From the IMG/VR virus record IMGVR_UViG_2695420728_000019, positions 1 through 8,992 of that record: DNA of 8,992 nucleotides. One strand, 5' to 3'. A program made the position numbers and the translations under genes. The notes under the pieces were generated by a model. The model was given only the letters and a program-made list of their open reading frames with translations, had not been told where the DNA came from and did no database searches. The DNA is from a virus (taxonomy: Duplodnaviria > Heunggongvirae > Uroviricota > Caudoviricetes). Shown one piece after another: positions 1 to 8,992 of the stretch; the stretch's first letter is position 1, and each line of letters opens with the position of its first letter.

Positions 1-534
1 CCAGCGGCGATTATCCGCACGCGGCATTTTTTCGGGGTGCTGCTCGTACAGGGAGCGGCGGGCCAGCTCCACGCCGGAATCAGGGTAAGCCGGTACGGAT
101 GTGACGGTAATTTCGTACAGTTCCGCAACCAGCACGGTGCGCACGCATGGATCTGTTGTGGTATCCCATACATCCTTACGGGAACGAAAGCCAAAGCTCA
201 TGCCGGATATATCACCACGCTTAACCAGTTCGATAACGTCCCGCCCTGTACTGGTATCCGGTGGCGTCAGTTCAAAGCGTAACCCTGTGTCGTCCTCTTC
301 CAGTTTCAGCGATCCGGAACGGGTGCGCCCCAGTAACATGCTGTGGTCATGCTCATACAGGCCGCGAACGTCATTACCCGCCGCAAGCCACTCAGTAAAC
401 GCCCCCCGCTGAAATTTTTCGTAAAACTCACCCCATAGCAGATCAGAAAGGTTATTCCAGCGAACAACGTAACCCGTCAGCGTGTTGCTGGCGCTGGTGG
501 TTATTTCCGATGACCGGATTTCCATACTCTTCAT
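1..534 (-). CDS. HK97-family prohead (head maturation) protease, N-terminal 178 aa; 3' end truncated by the window edge
   Basis: Minus-strand frame is open from ATG (revcomp of 532-534) to base 1, verified codon by codon; it is absent from the ORF track only because no stop lies in the window. Translation MKSMEIRSSEITTSASNTLTGYVVRWNNLSDLLWGEFYEKFQRGAFTEWLAAGNDVRGLYEHDHSMLLGRTRSGSLKLEEDDTGLRFELTPPDTSTGRDVIELVKRGDISGMSFGFRSRKDVWD... has the His-containing YEHDH block and the G.S.GF serine block typical of Peptidase S78/U35. GGGTGA lies about 9 nt upstream of the ATG. Confidence 0.75.
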   Translation of the reverse strand, partial: MKSMEIRSSEITTSASNTLTGYVVRWNNLSDLLWGEFYEKFQRGAFTEWLAAGNDVRGLYEHDHSMLLGRTRSGSLKLEEDDTGLRFELTPPDTSTGRDVIELVKRGDISGMSFGFRSRKDVWDTTTDPCVRTVLVAELYEITVTSVPAYPDSGVELARRSLYEQHPEKMPRADNRRW

Positions 535-559
535 AATTTTTTTCACCCATAAAACACTA

Positions 560-579
560 AAGGGGCTTTTTAGCCCCTT
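560..579 (-). terminator. Stem-loop between capsid and protease genes (8-bp stem AAGGGGCT/AGCCCCTT, TTTT loop); possible attenuator or weak bidirectional terminator
   Basis: Perfect inverted repeat 560-567/572-579, 11 nt after the capsid stop codon (590-592). On the minus strand it is followed by TAGTGTTTTATG, which is only partly U-rich. Confidence 0.35.
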
Positions 580-589
580 CTGTATGCTG

Positions 590-1747
590 TTAATCGTCGT
601 CCTGTGGCAGTTCCAGAATCTTGATCGCGTTCGAATCCACCACGCCACCGCCTAAATATTTCTGCGTGAAAATTTTGATAAAGCCCGGCTCTGTCAGGTT
701 GTCCGGTCTGGTGCGCACGCCCGTTTCATGATCAACGATGTAATAACCGCGTTTGAAGTCACCCAGGGCGATAACGTTATCCGGCATAAATTCCAGATAC
801 TCCACCGGAAGCCCCAGCAACGTATCAGGATCACCCGCCTGTAAACGGTCGCGCCAGATGTAATCGCCGTTCGCGTTCTTCACCTTCTGAAGTTTTGCCG
901 CCGTCGTGGAGTTAACCACCCAGACCGCGTTTTTGCGGTATTTTTTACGTAATGCAAATTTCAGGTCGATCAGCGGGTCCGCAGATGTCCACGCCAGAGA
1001 TTCGGAAGGTTTAATTACCTGCAACGTACCAAAATCACGCTCTTTGTCGTTCTTCTCTGCACGGGGTACGGATAAAAAACCTTTTGCTTTTTTGTCACCG
1101 TCGCCCACAACCAGATCGCTTTCTTCGGTTTCCGTGAAGGTGTCGCCAATCTCACCCGTCAGCCATGAAAGGATGTCCACATCGGAAAAATCCACGATTT
1201 CCTGTGTGGTGCGCGGGTACGCATAGACCGGATACAGCTTAATGCTCACCTCGTTAATCTGCGGGGTGCTGGTCTGTTCGCGTGTCTTACCCTCTTCACC
1301 GTGGTTAACGGTCGCACCGCCAGCGGAAACAAGCTGCTTAAACTCGTTGCTGCTGATTTTCTTCACGGTACAGATGCGGCGCATGGTGGATTCATCCGTC
1401 AGCATTCGCATGATTTCGGTGTTCAGTTCGGGGATAACGGTATAACCACCATCAGCGGGAACGCCTGTACTTAATGCGCGGGTTTCACCTGTCAGAATGT
1501 AGTTGCGTAGTTCTGCGGGGTCAGTGGTCTGGCTGCTTTTACCTGGCTTGCTGCGCTCTTCGTCTGCAATGGCTTCAAGGCGGGAAATGTCTTTATCGAG
1601 GGATTCAGCTTTAGCGCGTAATTCGTCAAATTTTGCGCCCTCAGCATCGTTAAGACTGCGGTTTTCTTTTTCCGCGTTCTCCAGCATGTCGCGCATCTGA
1701 TTTTTAATGGCGGTTTTCTGCTGGCGTAATTCGATTATTCTCGGCAT
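590..1747 (-). CDS. Major capsid protein, HK97 fold (385 aa from ATG at 1745-1747)
   Basis: N-terminal coiled-coil delta-domain-like segment (ELRQQKTAIKNQMRDMLENAEKENRSLNDAEGAKFDELRAKAESLDKDISRLEA), followed by blocks typical of the Phage_capsid family (GGYTVIPELNTEIMRMLTDESTMRRI; LVVGDGDKKAKGFL; AVWVVNSTTAAKL; GDPDTLLGLPVEYLEF; IALGDFKRGYYIVDHETGVRTRPD). The track ORF begins at a GTG at 1795; the ATG at 1747 has AGGA 8 nt upstream and is preferred. Confidence 0.85.
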   Translation of the reverse strand: MPRIIELRQQKTAIKNQMRDMLENAEKENRSLNDAEGAKFDELRAKAESLDKDISRLEAIADEERSKPGKSSQTTDPAELRNYILTGETRALSTGVPADGGYTVIPELNTEIMRMLTDESTMRRICTVKKISSNEFKQLVSAGGATVNHGEEGKTREQTSTPQINEVSIKLYPVYAYPRTTQEIVDFSDVDILSWLTGEIGDTFTETEESDLVVGDGDKKAKGFLSVPRAEKNDKERDFGTLQVIKPSESLAWTSADPLIDLKFALRKKYRKNAVWVVNSTTAAKLQKVKNANGDYIWRDRLQAGDPDTLLGLPVEYLEFMPDNVIALGDFKRGYYIVDHETGVRTRPDNLTEPGFIKIFTQKYLGGGVVDSNAIKILELPQDDD

Positions 1748-1783
1748 AAAAAAAGTCCTGGGGTTAAGTAAGGAACTCCAGGA
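1748..1783 (-). promoter_or_regulatory. Stable hairpin (11-bp stem with one G-T wobble, 8-nt loop) followed on the minus strand by T6 and then directly by the capsid ATG; terminator-like or translational control structure
   Basis: Arms 1754-1764 and 1773-1783 (GTCCTGG.../...CCAGGAC core), with 1748-1753 reading TTTTTT on the minus strand. The AGGA Shine-Dalgarno of the capsid gene lies inside the 3' arm. Confidence 0.35.
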
Positions 1784-1836
1784 CGCGGCAAACACTCAAC
1801 CGTTTTTCATAAGGAAATCAGTAATCGCACCGATCG

Positions 1837-1886
1837 TTTTCCCGCCTGGTAATGAATATTGGCGAGCACATTAACAGGCGGGAAAA
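1837..1886. promoter_or_regulatory. Perfect 12-bp inverted repeat TTTTCCCGCCTG / CAGGCGGGAAAA separated by 26 bp, in the intergenic region upstream of the capsid operon
   Basis: Arms at 1837-1848 and 1875-1886 read directly; the spacer is AT-rich (GTAATGAATATTGGCGAGCACATTAA). Lies between the PerC-like terminator and the capsid gene. Confidence 0.35.
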
Positions 1887-2006
1887 TGGCCCCAGCGTCC
1901 TGGCACCACGGGCGAGAATAATCATGATTCAGGTCGGGTAAAATATGCCGTTCCGGTCAGCGAGCAACGTGGAACAACCACGAACAAATAATTTACAAAA
2001 CATGAC

Positions 2007-2027
2007 AAAAAGCCGGATTGCTCCGGC
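2007..2027 (-). terminator. Rho-independent terminator downstream of the PerC-like gene
   Basis: Minus strand reads GCCGGA-GCAA-TCCGGC followed by TTTTTGTCATGTTTTG. Stem 2012-2017/2022-2027, U-tract from 2007-2011; 8 nt after the stop codon at 2035-2037. Confidence 0.55.
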
Positions 2028-2034
2028 TGTGTGA

Positions 2035-2307
2035 TTATCTGTCCTGGTAATTTCGCCATATTTCATCGCTTACACCATCTATACCCATTTCAGCATAAGT
2101 GCGATCTACTGCCTTTCTCAGGTCTCCGAAGTTATCCGGCGGCTCCGGTGGCTTCTGTGCCTTCCTGGAACATTCCAGCCGTCGCATCGTAACCTGATGC
2201 CGTTCCTTGTCTGTCTCCACCAGCAGCATGACTTCACCCCATCGCGCCGCCGCCCTCCGGTAAAAGCCTTTCGCCTCGAGTTCTTCCGCTATGCGGTCAT
2301 GTACCAT
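2035..2307 (-). CDS. PerC-family-like small transcriptional regulator (90 aa from ATG at 2305-2307)
   Basis: MVHDRIAEELEAKGFYRRAAARWGEVM...PPEPP...AEMGIDG matches my recollection of the PerC-family signature (IAE.LEAKG.WRRAA.RW). Strong RBS GAGGGGGTGG 5 nt upstream of this ATG; the longer track ORF (to 2427) would overlap ssb by over 100 nt and is rejected. Confidence 0.55.
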   Translation of the reverse strand: MVHDRIAEELEAKGFYRRAAARWGEVMLLVETDKERHQVTMRRLECSRKAQKPPEPPDNFGDLRKAVDRTYAEMGIDGVSDEIWRNYQDR

Positions 2308-2317
2308 CGCCACCCCC

Positions 2318-2728
2318 TCAGAACGGAATACCGTCACCGTAAGGGTCATCGCCTCCCGCTGGTGGCTGATTACCCTGTGTGCCTGTGGTTTTGCGTCTGT
2401 TCCCGCCAGGACGTGCCGCACGGGCACTGATTACGCTGTCTGCAATAACCTGATAACCCTGCCGCGTTTCCCCGTTCTGTCCGGTCCACTGGCTGACCTG
2501 CATCGTGCCGGATACGCTGGCAACGTCGCCTTTTTGGTGTTTAGCCAGGAAGTCGGCCTGCTTACCAAATGCGATGACCGATAGCCATAACGTAGCCTGC
2601 CCATCCTGCGCCTGACTACATGGCAACGATACCGCCATACGTGCCAGCGTCATTGGTGTGCCCTTGCTGGTCTGTTTTACCTGCGGGTCGTCCACCAGCC
2701 GCCCGTAAGCTGCTATCTGTGCTGTCAT
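2318..2728 (-). CDS. ssb: Single-stranded DNA-binding protein (136 aa)
   Basis: OB-fold blocks align with E. coli SSB (IAAYGRLVDDPQVK ~ VILVGNLGQDPEVR; WLSVIAFGKQADFLAKHQKGDVASVSGTMQVSQWTGQNGETR ~ [43 protein letters not shown]). Gly/Pro-rich linker and acidic C-terminal tail DDPYGDGIPF (compare ...DFDDDIPF). RBS GAGGTGG upstream; ATGA overlap with the upstream ORF. Confidence 0.8.
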   Translation of the reverse strand: MTAQIAAYGRLVDDPQVKQTSKGTPMTLARMAVSLPCSQAQDGQATLWLSVIAFGKQADFLAKHQKGDVASVSGTMQVSQWTGQNGETRQGYQVIADSVISARAARPGGNRRKTTGTQGNQPPAGGDDPYGDGIPF

Positions 2729-2976
2729 GATTCCACCTCTCCGGTTTTAACGTTGATGGTTGTCACCTGTTCAGCTTCCGCAATCTCCCGCTCTGTCAGC
2801 GTGGCAAAATTTGCCGCCGTCGTGGTCATGAATGCGCTTATCAGTTCGGGATGTGCTTTCGCGTATCCTTCCCCCGCGTGGCGGTCTATCGTTCTGATTG
2901 CCACCTTTAAGGCGTGCTCTGTCATGTCTAACGCTTTATATTTTGGCTCTGTTCTGTCTCTGTGTTTTTGAGTCAT
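2725..2976 (-). CDS. Hypothetical small protein (83 aa from ATG at 2974-2976), translationally coupled to ssb
   Basis: ATG preceded by GAGGTGG. The longer track ORF (to 3108) would read through the iteron array and is rejected. No recognisable family. Stop overlaps the ssb start (ATGA). Confidence 0.4.
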   Translation of the reverse strand: MTQKHRDRTEPKYKALDMTEHALKVAIRTIDRHAGEGYAKAHPELISAFMTTTAANFATLTEREIAEAEQVTTINVKTGEVES

Positions 2977-2978
2977 TT

Positions 2979-3181
2979 GCCCACCTCTACCCACTTTTTT
3001 CGCCCACTTTTTACGTTTTCCCACTTCGTCCAACGTGGGAAATTTGGGATTTATATCATCTTGTTTCATAGGTATTTTTTTAGTGCCCACTTTTTGGGAT
3101 ATATACACGTGGGAAAGTGGGTAATTTTGTTAAAATTCCGTTAAATCGCCCACCTTTCCCACTTTTAATGCCCACTTTTTA
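2979..3181. repeat. Iteron-type replication origin: about 11 copies of a CCCAC core (8 direct, 3 inverted) flanking an AT-rich stretch
   Basis: Direct CCCAC at 2980, 2990, 3003, 3020, 3086, 3149, 3158, 3171; longer form (G)CCCACTTTTT at 2990, 3003, 3086, 3171. Inverted GTGGG at 3035, 3109, 3117. AT-rich candidate unwinding element 3048-3083. Sits immediately 3' of the replication gene; the last iteron overlaps its stop codon. Confidence 0.6.
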
Positions 3182-4579
3182 CAGTGGTCCTACATCATCA
3201 CCGTCAATGTAGATCACGTCGTCTTTTTCCAGTTTGGCTAACCATCGTTTAAGGTGTTTTGTGTCATACCCCAGCTTTTTCATATCGTCACGTAACAGCG
3301 GGATCGTGCACTTGTCGCCGTGCTGTGTGCGTGAACGTATGCATCCCCATAGCGCGGTATGGTTTTCCGTCTTGTTCCCTGCCTCCTCGATGCGCTCCAG
3401 TTCAACAGGAGGGCGCGGATCATCCACCACCACCAGCGACGTGATTAATTCACCGTCAGCGTCGGTAAAAAGCTCCACCACGCGTAAGTCATATGCGGCT
3501 TCTTTGAGTTCCTCCGCGTCCTTCATTTTGGTGCATGAGATAACCAGCGCTTCGCTTCCTGCGTCCTCCCTGCGTATCCGGTATTCAGCATCCAGCGAAG
3601 CACGAAATGCACTGGAACCGCGCGCGCCTTTCGTCTCATCCTTGCCGGAATGGTGAACCACCAGCACCGTGGCCCCTGTGCGTCGTTTCAGTTCGTCACA
3701 ACCACGGATAAACGCCCCCATATCACGGGAATCATTTTCATCATTCCCACCAAAGCAACGCGCCAGCGTATCCAGAATAATCATGCGTACAGGTTTACCC
3801 GTTTCCCGCTCCACCTGACGGGCAGCGATAACCATTTCATCAACATCAAGCGGGGCAGCCGGAAAGATGGGGCGGTTTACCAGATACAGATTTTTCACCT
3901 GCTCATCGTGCACAACCTCCCAGGCTTTTACACGACGCGGAACACCTATACCGCCTTCACCAACCACATAGAGAACCGCACCATGTGCAACCCTGCGGCC
4001 TCCCCACTGGCGACCAGTGGCAACATGGCACGCCCACGATCCGGCAAGGAATGATTTATAGGACCCGCTAGCCCCGTATATGCTGCATAGCGATACCGCC
4101 GGAATAATCCCCTTAACCACGTAATCCAGTTGCGTGTCGTATCCGGTAGATCCAACGCTCATCGGTAGCGTGGTTTTTCGCTGGTGGTTTTTTTCTTCCG
4201 CCGGCTCTTTCCCGCGCACCCGTTCCAGGTATTCGCGCCAGTTCTCCCGCATATGGCTGTGCATCCCTTCGGGGTAATAATTCGCATCAGTTACACCCGC
4301 CGCCGCCAGCTTGTGCGCAATGGCATTAATATTTGATGGCCTGATGTGGCCTGCCTTGTACAGCCGGACACAATAGCGCCCCTCGTCGATGATTCTCAGG
4401 TCTGCCAGTTCATCCAGTTGATCATCAGCCAGCACAACGGGAGGCACATTATCGCCAGCCAGTCGCCCGTCCTGTTCCTGCCACTGTTTCGCATGTGCCC
4501 AGGCATCACTACCCGCAAAAATAATGACTTCGGTCATCTTGTCGTAAGGCTGTTTTTTTAAGTTCGGTGCGCTTTTCAT
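3179..4579 (-). CDS. Replication initiator/helicase, AAA_25 (RepA-like, RecA-fold) ATPase with ~190-aa N-terminal domain of unknown fold (466 aa)
   Basis: P-loop region SIYGASGSYKSFLAGSWACHVATGRQWGGRRVAHGAVLYVVGEG, Walker B-like MIILDTLARCFGG, and VLVVHHSGKD block typical of RepA/AAA_25 helicases. ATG with AGGGG RBS; ATGA overlap with the upstream ORF. Confidence 0.8.
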   Translation of the reverse strand: MKSAPNLKKQPYDKMTEVIIFAGSDAWAHAKQWQEQDGRLAGDNVPPVVLADDQLDELADLRIIDEGRYCVRLYKAGHIRPSNINAIAHKLAAAGVTDANYYPEGMHSHMRENWREYLERVRGKEPAEEKNHQRKTTLPMSVGSTGYDTQLDYVVKGIIPAVSLCSIYGASGSYKSFLAGSWACHVATGRQWGGRRVAHGAVLYVVGEGGIGVPRRVKAWEVVHDEQVKNLYLVNRPIFPAAPLDVDEMVIAARQVERETGKPVRMIILDTLARCFGGNDENDSRDMGAFIRGCDELKRRTGATVLVVHHSGKDETKGARGSSAFRASLDAEYRIRREDAGSEALVISCTKMKDAEELKEAAYDLRVVELFTDADGELITSLVVVDDPRPPVELERIEEAGNKTENHTALWGCIRSRTQHGDKCTIPLLRDDMKKLGYDTKHLKRWLAKLEKDDVIYIDGDDVGPL

Positions 4580-4875
4580 TTCTTGCCCCTGAATCCGTTA
4601 ATCATGGTTTTCAGCTTCTGGATGTTTGCCCGTGCCCTGGCGTTGCTGGTGGGCACGTTATGCGGCGCGGTCTGTACCAGAGAAAAATCACGCCGGAACT
4701 GATAAACAGGCATCACGCAATCATATTCGTAACCTTCACGGCGGTAAGTTACGCACCGTCCCGCCACGCCCTTAATCATTACCGTGCCGCCGTACTGGTC
4801 GCGGTAAATATCACCGCGCGTAAATTTAGGGTGAGTGTTGCCACTGGCAGTTAAGCCAGAATATTTAAGTTTCAT
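4576..4875 (-). CDS. Hypothetical protein (99 aa), translationally coupled to the replication gene
   Basis: ATG start, stop overlaps the rep ATG (ATGA). Basic, mixed composition unlike the antisense artefacts; no family recognised. Confidence 0.5.
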   Translation of the reverse strand: MKLKYSGLTASGNTHPKFTRGDIYRDQYGGTVMIKGVAGRCVTYRREGYEYDCVMPVYQFRRDFSLVQTAPHNVPTSNARARANIQKLKTMINGFRGKK

Positions 4876-4880
4876 TATTT

Positions 4881-5114
4881 TTATTCTCCGGTGTGCTGTT
4901 CTTTATATCTGTCGTGCAATAGATCTATTTCTTGCAGTTCCATTATTACAGGCTCAAGAAGCGTTATTAATGCCGTGGCAATTCTTAATTTTTGTTTGTC
5001 GCGTTCATTGTCGCCAAGTGTTTCAAGCCATATGCGCAATATTTCGTACATACCTTCAGCGTAAGCAAGGGCACTAAATGCGCGGTCTATTGTTTCAAGA
5101 TAAATATCACGCAT
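4881..5114 (-). CDS. Hypothetical small protein (77 aa, predicted helical)
   Basis: ATG start; 5-nt gap to the downstream ORF and 1-nt gap to the upstream ORF; same strand and packing as the rest of the operon. Confidence 0.45.
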   Translation of the reverse strand: MRDIYLETIDRAFSALAYAEGMYEILRIWLETLGDNERDKQKLRIATALITLLEPVIMELQEIDLLHDRYKEQHTGE

Positions 5115-5115
5115 A

Positions 5116-5337
5116 TTAATCCCCGTCCGTTGTTTTTCTTAAAACAGCTTCTGTCACGAAATCAGCATAGTTAGCGGCAATATCAAGAATATTTAGCCCT
5201 GTACCTCTGTGCTCATCAGTGCAAAGAAAGAAAAAAGCCACCCGCATAATTTCAGATATTGACGAAAGCGCATCAGCCGCATCATCAGGAACGCCGGAAA
5301 ATTCTTGTTTCAGGGAATTAAAACGATCATCACGCAT
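5116..5337 (-). CDS. Hypothetical small protein (73 aa)
   Basis: ATG at 5335-5337 preceded by GGGGAGGGGGGG RBS-like tract; tightly packed in the operon. Confidence 0.45.
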   Translation of the reverse strand: MRDDRFNSLKQEFSGVPDDAADALSSISEIMRVAFFFLCTDEHRGTGLNILDIAANYADFVTEAVLRKTTDGD

Positions 5338-5555
5338 AACCCCCCCTCCCCATTTTCACAATCAGCAACAAGAATATTTTTAGCGTCATTCAGCGACCGC
5401 GTGGCGGTGTATCGGATACATTCCAGGGCGAACAATGTGTATTCTTCCCGTTCTTCCTTTTGTGCAAGCCCTGCTGTGCATTCAATATCAATAAGCGCAT
5501 GCATCAGCGTAGTGAGCGCGGCGGCGGCTGCGTCCGGCGTGGTTTTATTGTGCAT
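5310..5555 (-). CDS. Hypothetical small protein (81 aa from ATG at 5553-5555)
   Basis: Track ORF starts at a TTG at 5585; the internal ATG at 5555 has AGGGGGA 8 nt upstream. Overlaps neighbours by 11 and 28 nt; start uncertain. Confidence 0.35.
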   Translation of the reverse strand: MHNKTTPDAAAAALTTLMHALIDIECTAGLAQKEEREEYTLFALECIRYTATRSLNDAKNILVADCENGEGGLCVMIVLIP

Positions 5556-5718
5556 AGGTTTCCCCCTGACGAATACGGGCGACAAAAATCAGATGTGCGT
5601 GCGGCAGCTGGGCGCGGGCTTCGCGTTCTGTTGCTGCCGTGACGGTAAAGAGTGAGGTTTGTTTTTCCTGGCACTGCATAAAGCGCCAGACAAAATAAGG
5701 GCGTGCGGATACAGCCAT
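5545..5718 (-). CDS. Icd-like (host cell division inhibitor-like / Ash-related) small protein, paralog 2 (57-aa core; the frame is open upstream to an ATG at 6012 giving an alternative 155-aa product)
   Basis: YFVWRFMQCQEKQTSLFTVTAATEREARAQLPHAHLIFVARIRQG fits the W.F....I.V.A.SE.EAR......F.AR signature I recall for Icd-like proteins of P4-like elements. ATG at 5716-5718 has GGGAG upstream. Confidence 0.5.
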   Translation of the reverse strand: MAVSARPYFVWRFMQCQEKQTSLFTVTAATEREARAQLPHAHLIFVARIRQGETYAQ

Positions 5719-6004
5719 GTGAAAGGCTCCCAGATGAATTTTAAGGAGTCTCGCTACTACGCTGTCAAACATGGTGGCGAGACGTAACAGGGTTGACAGA
5801 CTGGTCATCTGGAAACCAGCGAGCACAAAGGCTCCCCCGTTACGCCCCGCCATAATGCGGGTATGGGTAGGTTTACGGACACAAAAAAACCGCTTATCGG
5901 ATGTGGGCGGCTGTCCGCCAGATGTATTCAGGCTGTCAAACCCGGTCGCCATGTGGGCGACGGGGGAAGCATACAGCCCCGTGATAATTTTTTGCAAGCG
6001 GTTT

Positions 6005-6208
6005 TTACGCATGATGTGACCCCTGACGAATACGGGCAGCGAATACCATCACGCAGCCAGCCGGAGATTGCTGGCGTGCTTCCTGTTCGCTGGTGGCCTC
6101 AATGGTAATCACGCGCGGTTGTGCCGTGCTCAGGGCGATAAAACGCCAGATGTATTTATTCAGGTTGTACGAGTCCCGCCCTTGCGGGTGTATGGTATGA
6201 TTTCTCAT
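6005..6208 (-). CDS. Icd-like small protein, paralog 1 (67 aa from ATG at 6206-6208)
   Basis: YIWRFIALSTAQPRVITIEATSEQEARQQSPAGCVMVFAARIRQG, same signature as paralog 2. First gene of the leftward operon, downstream of a candidate promoter at 6316-6344. Confidence 0.5.
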   Translation of the reverse strand: MRNHTIHPQGRDSYNLNKYIWRFIALSTAQPRVITIEATSEQEARQQSPAGCVMVFAARIRQGSHHA

Positions 6209-6306
6209 AGCTGCCTCGATACTCTCGTTATCGTTGGTGGTTAGACGCCCCGTATGTGTTTCCGGCACTGCGGGGCGTTGCTCTTTGTATTTCAACAATC
6301 CTTTCG

Positions 6307-6339
6307 GTGTGTTTCATGTTATGAGCGCATGAAACACAC
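6307..6339. promoter_or_regulatory. Operator-like perfect palindrome GTGTGTTTCATG-N9-CATGAAACACAC overlapping a minus-strand promoter (-35 TTGACG 6339-6344, 17-bp spacer, -10 TAACAT 6316-6321)
   Basis: Arms 6307-6318 and 6328-6339 are exact reverse complements. A third copy of the half-site (TGAAACACAC, 6375-6384) lies at the -10/+1 region of the divergent plus-strand promoter. Confidence 0.5.
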
Positions 6340-6346
6340 GTCAAGG

Positions 6347-6384
6347 CTTTTTGTATTTCTTTTTTTGTGTATACTGAAACACAC
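6347..6384 (+). promoter_or_regulatory. Candidate promoter for the plus-strand gene at 6406: TG-adjacent -10 TATACT (6370-6375) with a weak T-rich -35; operator half-site at 6375-6384
   Basis: TGTATACT read directly; AGGAG RBS at 6393-6397, 8 nt before the ATG at 6406. The -35 is poor, so the assignment is tentative. Confidence 0.4.
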
Positions 6385-6405
6385 CGATGATTAGGAGTTT
6401 CAGAA

Positions 6406-6711
6406 ATGGCAACGGCTAACAAAAACGCAAAATCACAACTGACAACTGTCAGAGTCCCACTAGATGTTATGCAAGGGATGGAATCCGTTAAGCTGGACGG
6501 CGAAAGCAATGCCGGATTTATCGTAACCGCCATGCGCGGAGAAATAGCCCGCCGCCAAGCAGAAGGCAGCGGAGAAAATCCCCTTGTGTCGTCACTGGAT
6601 GCCCTGGCTAAGGTCGAACAAATCGGCATCAAAGCAGCGGAAGAAATCGGGCAGCTTGTCACCGTTGCACGCGAAGAACTCCAGCGTCGCAAGACCAAAG
6701 AACCAGAGTAA
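6406..6711 (+). CDS. Small regulator candidate with ribbon-helix-helix-like N-terminus (101 aa); divergent from the leftward operon
   Basis: Strong RBS AGGAG. N-terminal TTVRVPLDVMQGMESVKLDGESNAGFIVTAMRGEIARRQ has the strand-helix-loop-helix pattern of Arc/MetJ/CopG-type domains (inferred by eye); C-terminal half is helical and charged. Only plus-strand gene in the island core. Confidence 0.6.
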   Translation: MATANKNAKSQLTTVRVPLDVMQGMESVKLDGESNAGFIVTAMRGEIARRQAEGSGENPLVSSLDALAKVEQIGIKAAEEIGQLVTVAREELQRRKTKEPE

Positions 6712-6768
6712 TCACCATCAGCGCCGTGGTGTGAGGTATTACGGCGCATTGCTATGCAGGACAACACA

Positions 6769-6942
6769 ATGACCGATAAAGAATTGACCAAAACATTATC
6801 ACCGGCACGGAAAAGACGGCGCAGAAAGATAGAGCATGAATCAGAAAGATTCGCGCCATGTGCTTTTGCCCTTGAGCAATTCCTTAAAGAGTACAGGGAA
6901 AAGCGCTCATTGCAGGCATGGCAACGAACTGAACCAGACTGA
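6769..6942 (+). CDS. Possible small basic protein (57 aa, contains KRRRRK); low confidence
   Basis: ATG at 6769 with AGGA 8 nt upstream; lies between the RHH-like gene and the terminator at 7038. No family recognised; could be non-coding. Confidence 0.25.
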   Translation: MTDKELTKTLSPARKRRRRKIEHESERFAPCAFALEQFLKEYREKRSLQAWQRTEPD

Positions 6943-7037
6943 TAGCATTGCCCACCAGCCTGATAGCGGCTATCATCCCCGTGCTTATGTTTGGGATCAC
7001 ATACACATAAGGCGCAGCGGGTTATCTGTTCAGAAAG

Positions 7038-7065
7038 GCGGCTCCATTTCGGGGCCGCTTTTTTT
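7038..7065 (+). terminator. Rho-independent terminator (GCGGCTCC-ATTTC-GGGGCCGC then T7), probably bidirectional between the convergent plus-strand unit and alpA
   Basis: Stem 7038-7045/7051-7058 with one G-U wobble, T-tract 7059-7065. An A-tract precedes it, so the minus-strand transcript also gets hairpin plus U-run. Confidence 0.6.
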
Positions 7066-7211
7066 ATGCCTGAAAAACCCCAATTTTGTGGTTTTCCAGT
7101 CTCACCAGGGCGAACGAATCCCCGCCCACGTTCTGGCGTATATTCAATCTTCATGGTTATAGCTCTGTGTTCAGATGATTGATGTGTGGCGGCTGCGTGC
7201 CGCCAGCGTGA

Positions 7212-7400
7212 TTAATGAACTGCCTTGCAGCTATCCTTCCAGGCCAGAACCTCGGATAAAGACCAGCCAACGGAACGACCGCCAAGTTTACGACGTGATG
7301 GGAATTGTCCGGCCTTTTCCAGGCGGTAGCGACATGTACGGCTAAGGCCGGTTAGTTTTTCGCATTCTTTTTCACGTATAAACCGATCAGTGCTTAACAC
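7212..7400 (-). CDS. alpA: AlpA-family transcriptional regulator / excisionase-like protein (62 aa)
   Basis: LTGLSRTCRYRLEKAGQFPSRRKLGGRSVGWSLSEVLAWK matches the AlpA (Phage_AlpA) helix-turn-helix signature. Start is a GTG at 7398-7400 with AAGGGGG RBS 5 nt upstream. Lies immediately downstream of int. Confidence 0.8.
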   Translation of the reverse strand: MLSTDRFIREKECEKLTGLSRTCRYRLEKAGQFPSRRKLGGRSVGWSLSEVLAWKDSCKAVH

Positions 7401-7559
7401 TATTGCCCCCTTTCGTTTCTTAAAGAGTTATTTCGTGTTCTATTGCGTTGGGATGTGTCTGATTGTGTCAGGATGATTCAGAGTTGGCAAATGTTGAGGT
7501 CGTATGGTTTACAGAAACAGGAATAATCAGGATAAAATCATTTAAATTCATGTTAATAT

Positions 7560-7588
7560 AAAGGCATAAAATATTGTTTCATGCCTTT
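7560..7588 (-). terminator. AU-rich hairpin (AAAGGCAT-N13-ATGCCTTT) about 190 bp downstream of int; weak candidate int terminator
   Basis: 8-bp inverted repeat 7560-7567/7581-7588 in a very AT-rich intergenic region; flanking runs of A/T on both sides. Confidence 0.25.
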
Positions 7589-7741
7589 TTTCTCGCTATT
7601 TAAAGAGTGATTCGCTAGTGTATAAAAAACCAGTAACACATTAAAAATCAGCTACTTATAAATCCGTACACTTTTTCGCCTCTTGTTCGTAGTTGTTCCG
7701 CATTGTTGCTCATTGTTGCATGTTGTATCTGTTCGCATATC

Positions 7742-7757
7742 CAGTATGCGCATACTG
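7742..7757. promoter_or_regulatory. Perfect 16-bp palindrome CAGTATGCGCATACTG just 3' of the int stop, adjacent to phased TTGTT repeats (7683-7725)
   Basis: Sequence equals its own reverse complement. No flanking T-tract in terminator geometry, so more likely a protein-binding site. Confidence 0.35.
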
Positions 7758-7774
7758 AAAAAACACGAAAAAAA

Positions 7775-8992
7775 TTATTTTCTTCTGGCTACTGGTAGCG
7801 TGGTTACGTTTTCATGTGTTCCCGCCAGTATCCCTAACCGCTCCGTCCACATATCCAGCGCATTGCGTTTAGCATCCAGATAACGGGAATGATTATAAAC
7901 TCGCTGCATTCCTGGCATCTGATGACCTGTAAGCTGCTCCACGACATGCGGATCAACGCCTAAATCGTTCAGCATGGTTGTAAAGGTGCGCCGGATGTCA
8001 TGCAGTGACCAGTGAGGATGATTAAGCCTCCTGTGCGCTAATCTTCCATACTGCGATACGCTGGCCTCCTGTTTCGCTTCCCCCAGCAATAAGCCCGTGT
8101 GCCTGTTCTGCTCCACCAGCTGCGTGACGAACGGCAGGATCGCTTCCGGTATGGGCCGGAATATTGCGACCTTCGTTTTGCTGTGCTCCTTCGGAACGGT
8201 CCATAGCATTTCCGTAAAATCCCACTCCCCGATCTCCGATAGCCTCAGTTCTACCGTCCTGGCTCCGAAGACAATCAGGAGGCGGATTAACGCGACGTAG
8301 TAAGGGGAAAATATTTTTTTGTCCAGTGCCTGCAATAATTCGCCAAGTTCTTTGTTACTTAAGACACGTTCGCTTATATCCGGTTTTTTCCCAACGTCCG
8401 CCACGTTCAGATCGTCCAGAACGTTGCTGATTGCATAGCGCCGCCTACGGCAAAACTTAAGCGCCTGTTTGCACGCCTGTAGCACGAATCCGGCAGTAAC
8501 AGGCGTTCGCTTTGCCACCTGGTCAAAACAGGCCAGCCAGTGCCGTAGCTCGCATTTATCCAGCGGCATAGCACCAATCTGCTGTATTACGTGATTATTA
8601 AGTCGCCTTTTCAGGGCGATATAATCCACGCGGTTTTCCTTTACGTAATACTCAAGCCAGTAGGTGAGCGCATCGCCAACCGTTACGGGCTTTAACGCTT
8701 CCTGTACGGTGTAATTCATCTCATGACGTGGATTTTTCCCCTCAGCCAGCCATGTGCGACACTGTGCGGCTTTTTCCCTGGCTACTTTCAGGCTCAGATC
8801 AGGATAACTTCCCAGCTTAATGCGTTCGGGTCGTGTCTCCCTTCCCGTTCCGGCCCTGTATGTGAAATACCAGGTCAATTTCCCTGATGTTAAATATTTC
8901 ACGCTCAGGTTTCCGCCATCACTATAAAACGTGTTTTTCTCCGCTGGCTTACCATGAAGTTTCCTTAGCAAGGTATCGCTCAGTTTGTTCAT
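7775..8992 (-). CDS. int: Tyrosine-type site-specific integrase, P4-like (405 aa)
   Basis: N-terminal arm-binding-type domain (LSVKYLTSGKLTWYFTYRAGTGRETRPERIKLGSY) and C-terminal catalytic blocks (HDIRRTF, GHQMPGMQRVYNHSRY with the catalytic Tyr). The ATG is the last three bases of the window (8990-8992). Confidence 0.9.
   Translation of the reverse strand: MNKLSDTLLRKLHGKPAEKNTFYSDGGNLSVKYLTSGKLTWYFTYRAGTGRETRPERIKLGSYPDLSLKVAREKAAQCRTWLAEGKNPRHEMNYTVQEALKPVTVGDALTYWLEYYVKENRVDYIALKRRLNNHVIQQIGAMPLDKCELRHWLACFDQVAKRTPVTAGFVLQACKQALKFCRRRRYAISNVLDDLNVADVGKKPDISERVLSNKELGELLQALDKKIFSPYYVALIRLLIVFGARTVELRLSEIGEWDFTEMLWTVPKEHSKTKVAIFRPIPEAILPFVTQLVEQNRHTGLLLGEAKQEASVSQYGRLAHRRLNHPHWSLHDIRRTFTTMLNDLGVDPHVVEQLTGHQMPGMQRVYNHSRYLDAKRNALDMWTERLGILAGTHENVTTLPVARRK

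Follow-up and report, generated by a model that had tools for sequence, protein, structure and literature searches.

RNase P processes longer transcripts to yield the C4 RNA of phages P1/P7 and the CI RNA of P4. The P4 gene kil (65 aa) is the end of a longer open reading frame (ORF), eta, of 197–199 aa. PMC10111431, citing Forti et al. 1999, describes a constitutive promoter inside eta whose transcript stops early via CI and the seqA sites and yields CI RNA by processing. Occasional read-through allows Kil to be made, and full-length Eta comes only from an upstream late promoter, its translation being coupled to an upstream alpA homologue. Translation of Eta, in the same account, prevents the termination. 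The article also describes matches of the Rfam models C4 and isrK in several Gram-negative satellite islands; it may be noted that 'icd' there denotes the isocitrate dehydrogenase gene as an integration site. Here we describe a locus of this type in an 8,992-nucleotide stretch of viral DNA (Caudoviricetes; positions 1–8,992 of IMG/VR record IMGVR_UViG_2695420728_000019), referred to as the window. It carries two tandem ORFs resembling Icd, copies A and B, and the frame of copy B stays open for 98 codons upstream of its own start. We consider it probable that this locus is an early-operon immunity switch of a phage-satellite island, built like c4-icd of P1 and seqA-cI-seqC-kil/eta of P4, in which both products can be made and the 98 codons serve as a translated track. 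All coordinates are window positions, and all features of the immunity locus lie on the minus strand.

When the window was scanned against Rfam, three matches were obtained, all of them within the 98-codon extension. The C4 antisense RNA (RF01695) matched at 5857–5770 over its full model (1–87) with 72.6 bits (gathering score 45; E 4.5e-13). This stretch had a minimum free energy of −47 kcal/mol (z −6.5) and folded into the architecture of the model consensus, an outer stem enclosing two hairpins. The c4-a1b1 element (RF03163) was found at 5974–5925 with 46.8 bits, barely above its gathering score of 46.7. The isrK RNA (RF01394) did not reach its gathering score of 50 bits, with 35.2 bits at 5961–5883; this match ends in a hairpin followed by seven U residues. 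In a DNA search of phage records, positions 5949–5760 were 78% identical to P1 and 80% identical to the related phage D6. The P1 annotation assigns this stretch, base by base, to a1, b1, c4 RNA, a2, b2, and icd, and the target positions in the window were obtained by alignment to P1 and transfer of coordinates. Copy B is the first gene past the C4 RNA and has its ribosome-binding site within the b2 target, like icd of P1 and kil of P4. The C4 loop CCAGATG and the region of the copy B Shine–Dalgarno (SD) sequence gave a 13-bp duplex within an RNAduplex interaction of −22.5 kcal/mol. No protein family matched the extension in profile searches. A scan of a genome collection with the 16-mer TTTGTGTCCGTAAACC returned almost exclusively chance matches in unrelated organisms; 4 of 115 fitted a loose C4 pattern, and these are doubtful.

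The cassette was compared among 25 unique same-type loci, which were drawn from IMG/VR pattern scans and two E. coli records. The extension was almost invariant across the 25 islands except for b1, the C4 loop, and b2, which changed together. Six b1/b'/b2 alleles were seen, for example CATCTGG/CCAGATG/CATCTGG, CTACAG/CTGTAG/CTACAG, and AAATTGG/CCAATTT/AAATTGG. Loop and targets formed 7–10 contiguous Watson–Crick pairs within an allele, and at most 5 between alleles. The island family has at least six pairing specificities.

The distribution of variable sites over codon positions separated the extension from the two Icd-like ORFs. For copy A, variable sites at positions 1, 2, and 3 numbered 35/67, 36/67, and 52/67 (61% variable columns; third-position odds ratio 3.1, p=7e-4), and for copy B 19/57, 19/57, and 32/57 (41% variable columns; odds ratio 2.6, p=0.005). 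After removal of the three b blocks, the extension had 13/83, 16/82, and 9/83 (15% variable columns), with no excess at the third position. Therefore, the constraint on the extension acts at the nucleic-acid level and not on an amino-acid sequence; the two Icd copies, in contrast, evolve as proteins. The original prediction had allowed for a novel N-terminal domain here. Given the lack of a family match and of a third-position excess, a content made up of the C4 RNA, its targets, and a hairpin, and the DNA homology to the P1 c4 region, that suggestion is not upheld. Instead of a protein domain, the 98 codons hold a C4/CI antisense-RNA immunity switch of the P1/P4 kind.

Both copies scored above the cut-off of 25 bits with the NCBIfam model NF033153 (phage_ICD_like; Table 1); the same model gave 52.6 bits for P1 Icd and 73.9 bits for the P4 Kil region. 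Together with the coding-type third-position excess in both, and the similarity of copy B to P1 Icd, this bears out the claim that both ORFs are Icd-like. Copies A and B share 41% protein identity over 49 aa, and their DNA is 49% identical (80/162) over the aligned codons. Identity to P1 Icd is 50% for copy B and 32% for copy A. The Icd-like ORFs also match PHROG families 1743 and 6196, both labelled 'transcriptional repressor'; one PHROG family, of 188 aa, terminates in an Icd-like segment. Counted from a TTG, the minus-strand ORF 6005–6298 of copy A has 97 aa. This form was dropped: relatives do not conserve it, and their sequence ahead of ATG 6208 varies strongly. Translation probably starts at ATG 6208, which is preceded by GAGG at a distance of 5 nt and gives 67 aa. 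As originally predicted, the frame of copy B stays open for a further 98 codons. The resulting ORF 5545–6012, of 155 aa, begins at an ATG (6012–6010) that overlaps the copy A stop (TAA, 6007–6005) as ATGCGTAA, and its internal in-frame ATG (5718–5716) opens the 57-aa short form. The start of the next ORF, of 81 aa, overlaps the end of copy B, and therefore the two are probably translationally coupled.

Table 1. Features of the Icd/C4 locus and its upstream region, by window position
Feature	Positions	Strand	Basis or remark
Promoter-like site TTGACG-17-TAACAT	6316..6344	-	9/12 match; sole site in 5400–6500, no more than shuffles give
Leader hairpin ACGCCCCG / CGGGGCGT	6245..6278	-	8-nt stem, 100% complementary; upstream of copy A
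Icd-like copy A, 67 aa	6005..6208	-	NF033153, 68.9 bits; third-position excess
18-bp block, copy A	6020..6037	-	GCCCGTATTCGTCAGGGG on the minus strand, encodes ARIRQG; 3' CAGGGG 7 nt ahead of the long-ORF ATG
Long ORF, 155 aa	5545..6012	-	crosses the whole RNA cassette and terminates as copy B; proposed analogue of P4 eta
Putative internal promoter TTGCAA-18-TATGCT	5968..5997	-	by eye; presumed analogue of P4 PLE and P1 P1c4/P51b
Upstream target element (c4-a1b1 / seqA-like)	5925..5974	-	RF03163 and mapping of the annotated P1 a1/b1
a1 TTGACAG	5939-5933	-	transfer from P1 annotation
b1 CATCTGGC	5924-5917	-	extends just beyond the Rfam match; transfer from P1 annotation
Terminator-like hairpin AGCCGC...GCGGUU + U7 (5889-5883)	5883..5912	-	isrK alignment and fold; weak alone
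C4/CI-type antisense RNA	5770..5857	-	RF01695; mature RNA ~5851-5773 by homology to P1 c4
C4 loop b' CCAGATG	5812-5806	-	part of the C4 RNA
C4 single-stranded a' CTGTCAA	5799-5793	-	part of the C4 RNA
Downstream targets a2/b2	5727..5768	-	RNA duplex and covariation
a2 TTGACAG	5768-5762	-	transfer from P1 annotation
b2 TCATCTGG	5737-5730	-	overlaps the copy B SD GGGAG (5731-5727), ATG 5718
Icd-like copy B, 57-aa short form	5545..5718	-	NF033153, 56.1 bits; 50% identity to P1 Icd; third-position excess
18-bp block, copy B	5563..5580	-	3' CAGGGG(G) 6 nt ahead of ATG 5555 of the next overlapping ORF
Next ORF, 81 aa	5310..5555	-	phrog_5146; start overlaps the end of copy B

The −10 of the putative internal promoter sits 2–3 nt from the mapped position of the annotated P1 −10 (5976–5971), and its predicted start, ~5961, is the first base of the isrK-model match. 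Its 7-nt geometry relative to that match is shared with a TATAGT picked by eye in P4, and a similar motif, TTGATC-18-TATGAT, is present in the second cassette of one relative (L032). The terminator-like hairpin was not detected by a simple terminator scan. A GC hairpin, GGCGG/CCGCC (5919–5906), of which the end of b1 forms part, is a competitor of the terminator-like stem; speculatively, C4 pairing at b1 could release CCGCC for terminator formation.

By analogy with P1 and P4, the locus would work as follows. The promoter inside the long ORF (~5997–5968) would produce a transcript that is processed to the C4 RNA. Pairing of this RNA with b2/a2 would block translation of copy B, and also that of the downstream replication genes, by coupling or polarity; its pairing with a1/b1 would favor early termination. 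Such control would keep the island quiet and give it type-specific immunity. When the upstream promoter (6344–6316) fires, copy A would be translated, and ribosomes would restart at the overlapping ATG 6012 and traverse the whole RNA cassette in the 155-aa frame. Their passage would prevent hairpin formation and C4 pairing, so that the transcript would escape immunity, as PMC10111431 reports for P4 eta.

This scheme gives the 155-aa frame a role as a track for ribosomes, and two other accounts of that frame have to be set beside it. One of them holds that function is confined to the RNA cassette and the 57-aa protein, the long frame being a passenger that is stop-free through constraint on the RNA and is never usefully translated. 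We regard this as a serious contender that still falls short of an even chance. The near invariance of the extension, without coding-type variation, and its lack of a family match are what a passenger would show. Moreover, several points weigh against the scheme proposed here. P1-type phages carry the same cassette, and their loci work with the long frame closed just after c4. The frame is also closed in 13 of 56 P4-type loci, and the relative L117 has lost it through a 1-nt change (a shortened T-run). Every cassette reads C4 in the same phase and the RNA sequence barely changes; therefore, the openness of the frame may be inherited, and the frame could be open for that reason alone. Only about two independent indel compensations are found in this island family. 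The terminator hairpin is weak and the isrK match falls short of its gathering score (35 against 50 bits), while the putative internal promoter agrees with just 8 of 12 consensus positions and lies under the promoter-scan threshold. The P4 eta mechanism, finally, was taken from a secondary summary, PMC10111431, which cites Forti et al. 1999.

Against a passenger stands the rarity of such a frame. It contains no stop, as against 4 and 7 in the other two frames, and was open in 391 of 20000 mononucleotide shuffles (~2%). The in-phase frame is stop-free in three diverged cassettes, namely those of the window and of P4 and the extra upstream cassette of relatives, whose other frames mostly have 1–6 stops; one other frame is also stop-free in L063. 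The long ORF is open in 24 of 25 unique relatives, and its ATG always lies 294 nt from the short one; where b1 has lost 1 nt, a 1-nt gain in the hairpin loop or the C4 loop offsets it. In P4-type loci, the hairpin-to-C4 spacers of the open examples differ by multiples of three (a rough count). The start of the long ORF overlaps the upstream stop with the SD spacing of real coupled genes: the arrangement CAGGGG-N6-7-ATG is seen at the long ORF and again at the gene that follows copy B, which is undoubtedly real. Moreover, PMC10111431 reports that translation of P4 eta is functional. On balance, we give slightly better than an even chance that the 155-aa ORF is an eta analogue, that is, more than a passenger. 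The other account, in which copy B is a 155-aa protein with a new functional domain of 98 residues fused ahead of Icd, appears very improbable indeed. The ORF exists, a form of 153–154 aa is annotated by PGAP in E. coli relatives, and the 188-aa PHROG family ends in an Icd-like segment. However, the excess at third positions expected of a domain is absent (9/83 vs 13/83 and 16/82), no family matches the extension, and the RNA elements common with P1 explain it base by base. About 100 nt are read in another frame in L063; therefore, the residues are not conserved. Whether or not the eta-like reading holds, the extra residues of the 155-aa form are not a conserved domain. The earlier ambiguity between a 57-aa and a 155-aa product is thus real and has a precedent in P4 kil within eta, but the long form does not survive as a new domain. 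By the same analogy, both products are likely made, from different transcripts, the long form mattering as an act of translation.

The two copies share an 18-bp block, and this raised the question of recent duplication or continuing gene conversion between them. The block, CCCCTGACGAATACGGGC on the plus strand, is present exactly twice in the window, at 5563–5580 and 6020–6037; the repeat reported earlier is real, though its second copy had been placed one base off (6019–6036). It was found in 0 of 200 dinucleotide shuffles (mean 0.00 matches), an exact repeat beyond chance expectation, and the island family does duplicate entire cassettes. A recent event is nevertheless improbable. The copies are old paralogues, with the low identities given above, and in this diverged pair no stretch but the block is exact; the block encodes their most conserved residues, and identity stops at the ARIRQG motif. 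Synonymous variants within it (CGT/CGC, GCC/GCT, GGG/GGA) were seen in both copies of relatives but were uncorrelated within a locus. Gene conversion as the cause of the block was rejected on this ground, the variants of copies A and B not being matched within one locus. Outside the block, the same codon is used at 8 of the 15 residues common to both copies; therefore, six identical codons in a row are unusual (roughly 2%) but not extreme. The 3' end of the block also has a second role, as CAGGGG resembles an SD sequence and, in both copies, is followed after 6–7 nt by the start codon of the next overlapping ORF; some relatives have CAGGAGG at this position.

The comparison with related islands proposed in the original prediction showed both the extension frame retained in 24 of 25 and double cassettes in 10 of 27 loci (upstream alignment). 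Two full cassettes in tandem were found by Rfam in L021, L032, L063, and L074. In these, an isrK-type element (62–66 bits) and a first C4 (75–79 bits) with different a/b sequences precede copy A, whose SD lies inside its own b2; the second cassette and copy B follow. The complete cassette ahead of copy A, with its targets over the SD, is seen at L032:2766–3190, and likewise in L021, L063, and L074. Its different a/b sequences imply two different antisense RNAs in series. In the window, copy A has no C4 cassette of its own in front, the first RNA set being replaced by a promoter-like site in a palindrome and a leader hairpin. Given the relatives with two tandem cassettes, we infer that the Icd pair of the window is a pair of old paralogues, the remnant of a whole-cassette duplication. 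In L032, L042, L063, and L124, the long ORF of the first cassette incorporates, in frame and upstream of that cassette, a truncated third Icd-like unit (MVAVNHIPHLVHTQTAFVWRFLAL...), which suggests repeated module shuffling in the island family.

The promoter-like site lies in a 26-nt imperfect palindrome with arms at 6293–6318 and 6328–6353. The palindrome (6293–6353), with the core GTGTGTTTCATG / CATGAAACACAC 9 nt apart, is situated between copy A and a divergent YlcI/YnfO gene (6406–6711, plus strand), and it may be an operator. The promoter-like site would drive copy A and everything downstream, possibly as the analogue of P4 PLL. In many relatives the stem of the leader hairpin is kept and its loop varies; no U-run follows it. 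A 308-aa minus-strand ORF (6228–7154), opposite the YlcI/YnfO gene and across the promoter region, is probably spurious.

A further idea can be put forward tentatively, and we think it rather doubtful. The island family would string together one to two full antisense-RNA locks that differ in specificity, with an Icd-like ORF behind each and, in some relatives, a truncated third Icd unit ahead of the array. Each lock would be crossed by an in-phase ORF, and these ORFs would be joined start-to-stop. On transcripts from the upstream promoter, ribosomes that load at the first Icd gene would thus serve as a relay and open every lock. The orphan copy A would now be a dedicated loader, rather than, or besides, a division inhibitor.

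The genes of the window include an integrase, AlpA, the divergent YlcI/YnfO, DUF4222, an AAA_25 helicase-type replication protein (helicase gene at 3179–4579), SSB, PerC, and an HK97-type capsid protein. Together they give the window the layout of a Gram-negative phage-inducible island, which may be of the capsid-forming kind. The PerC-family ORF overlaps the end of the SSB ORF by ~110 nt in another frame (2035–2427 and 2318–2728), and PerC probably starts at an internal codon. Of 5426 complete E. coli genomes, 1640 contained parts of the queried stretch; in the best match, identity was 92.6% over 85% of the query.

In RefSeq/PGAP annotation, the 153–154-aa ORF is called 'host cell division inhibitor Icd-like protein', and no RNA gene is annotated in the cassette (L001:3263–3724, L002:3035–3499). 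In the P4 reference record, a 137-aa ORF over the CI RNA match is named 'cI gene product / transcriptional repressor'. The 'transcriptional repressor' label of PHROG 1743/6196 may have been inherited from this P4 cI ORF. Since the extension is the known C4/CI switch, the locus belongs, as an ordinary member, to a regulatory system already known, one that genome annotation usually misses; its interest lies mainly in the annotation and in the set of six specificity alleles. Recognition of the RNA switch shows how such satellite islands are probably kept silent, explains why islands of unlike loop type should not cross-repress, and indicates where the induction signal is to be sought.

We compared the locus with the known systems part by part. 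With the immI operon of P1/P7 (c4, icd, ant1/ant2), it shares 78% DNA identity over ~190 nt comprising a1, b1, the hairpin, c4, and a2. As in P1, b2 stands just ahead of the icd start, and CAGGGGG precedes the overlapping next gene (CAGGGGG-N4-ATG for icd-ant1 of P1). Differences in loop and target set the specificity in both. The P1 loop is CACTAAC and its b1 GTTAGTG, against CCAGATG and CATCTGG in the window; therefore, loop and targets differ together between the two. Unlike the window, P1 lacks an upstream Icd copy, and its long frame is not open (it has 2 in-phase stops and closes just after c4); the downstream gene of P1 is an antirepressor, in place of the small ORFs followed by replication genes.

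Like isrK-orf45-anrP of Salmonella Gifsy-1 (PMC4825925), the locus would have a short terminated RNA that bears target sequences and a processed RNA downstream, which is ~80 nt long in Gifsy-1 (STnc1160). There too, the ORF over that RNA is conserved in nucleotides and not in amino acids; in Gifsy-1, it is nevertheless translated and coupled to the next gene. The differences are that the isrK score of the window is below threshold (35 vs 50 bits), and that its overlapping ORF terminates in an Icd-like domain instead of being a 45-aa peptide.

For the Pfam family PF10554 (Phage_ASH; threshold 26 bits), P4 Eta gave 82.4 bits over residues 22–146, which are the translation of the seqA-CI-seqC stretch (L123 8168–8767). 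The window extension occupies the same position, but the 155-aa ORF gave no match to this family even at E up to 10. Hence, of the Icd/Ash relatedness originally proposed, the Icd part is supported by NF033153 and the Ash part is not, although P4 Eta itself matches.

In the P4 reference record, the 137-aa ORF overlaps a C4 match of 74.9 bits, with an isrK match (60.8 bits) just upstream, and it terminates in the Icd-like domain (73.9 bits). The RNA is followed by ATTCACAGGAGG and then by the ATG opening the 65-aa Icd-like ORF, Kil, whose SD lies within seqC. Three consecutive in-frame ATGs at 8767–8759, overlapping the stop of the preceding gene, start the longer ORF. The window differs from the P4 immunity region (PLL, vis, PLE, seqA, CI RNA, seqC, kil in eta) in that the gene feeding the long ORF is an Icd-like paralogue and not the AlpA-type vis. 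Its long ORF has 155 aa instead of 197–199 and lacks the Phage_ASH match, its RNA sequence is nearer to P1 than to P4, and its terminator hairpin is weaker. The order of parts is nevertheless the same: an isrK-like target and U-tailed hairpin, a C4-family RNA, targets over the SD, and a short Icd-like gene. In both, replication genes lie downstream, and a longer in-frame ORF runs from an ATG overlapping the upstream stop and crosses the RNA gene in the same phase. The window thus shows the nested kil/eta-type arrangement: the immunity RNA is spanned by a longer ORF that begins at the upstream stop and has the short Icd-like gene as its in-frame end.

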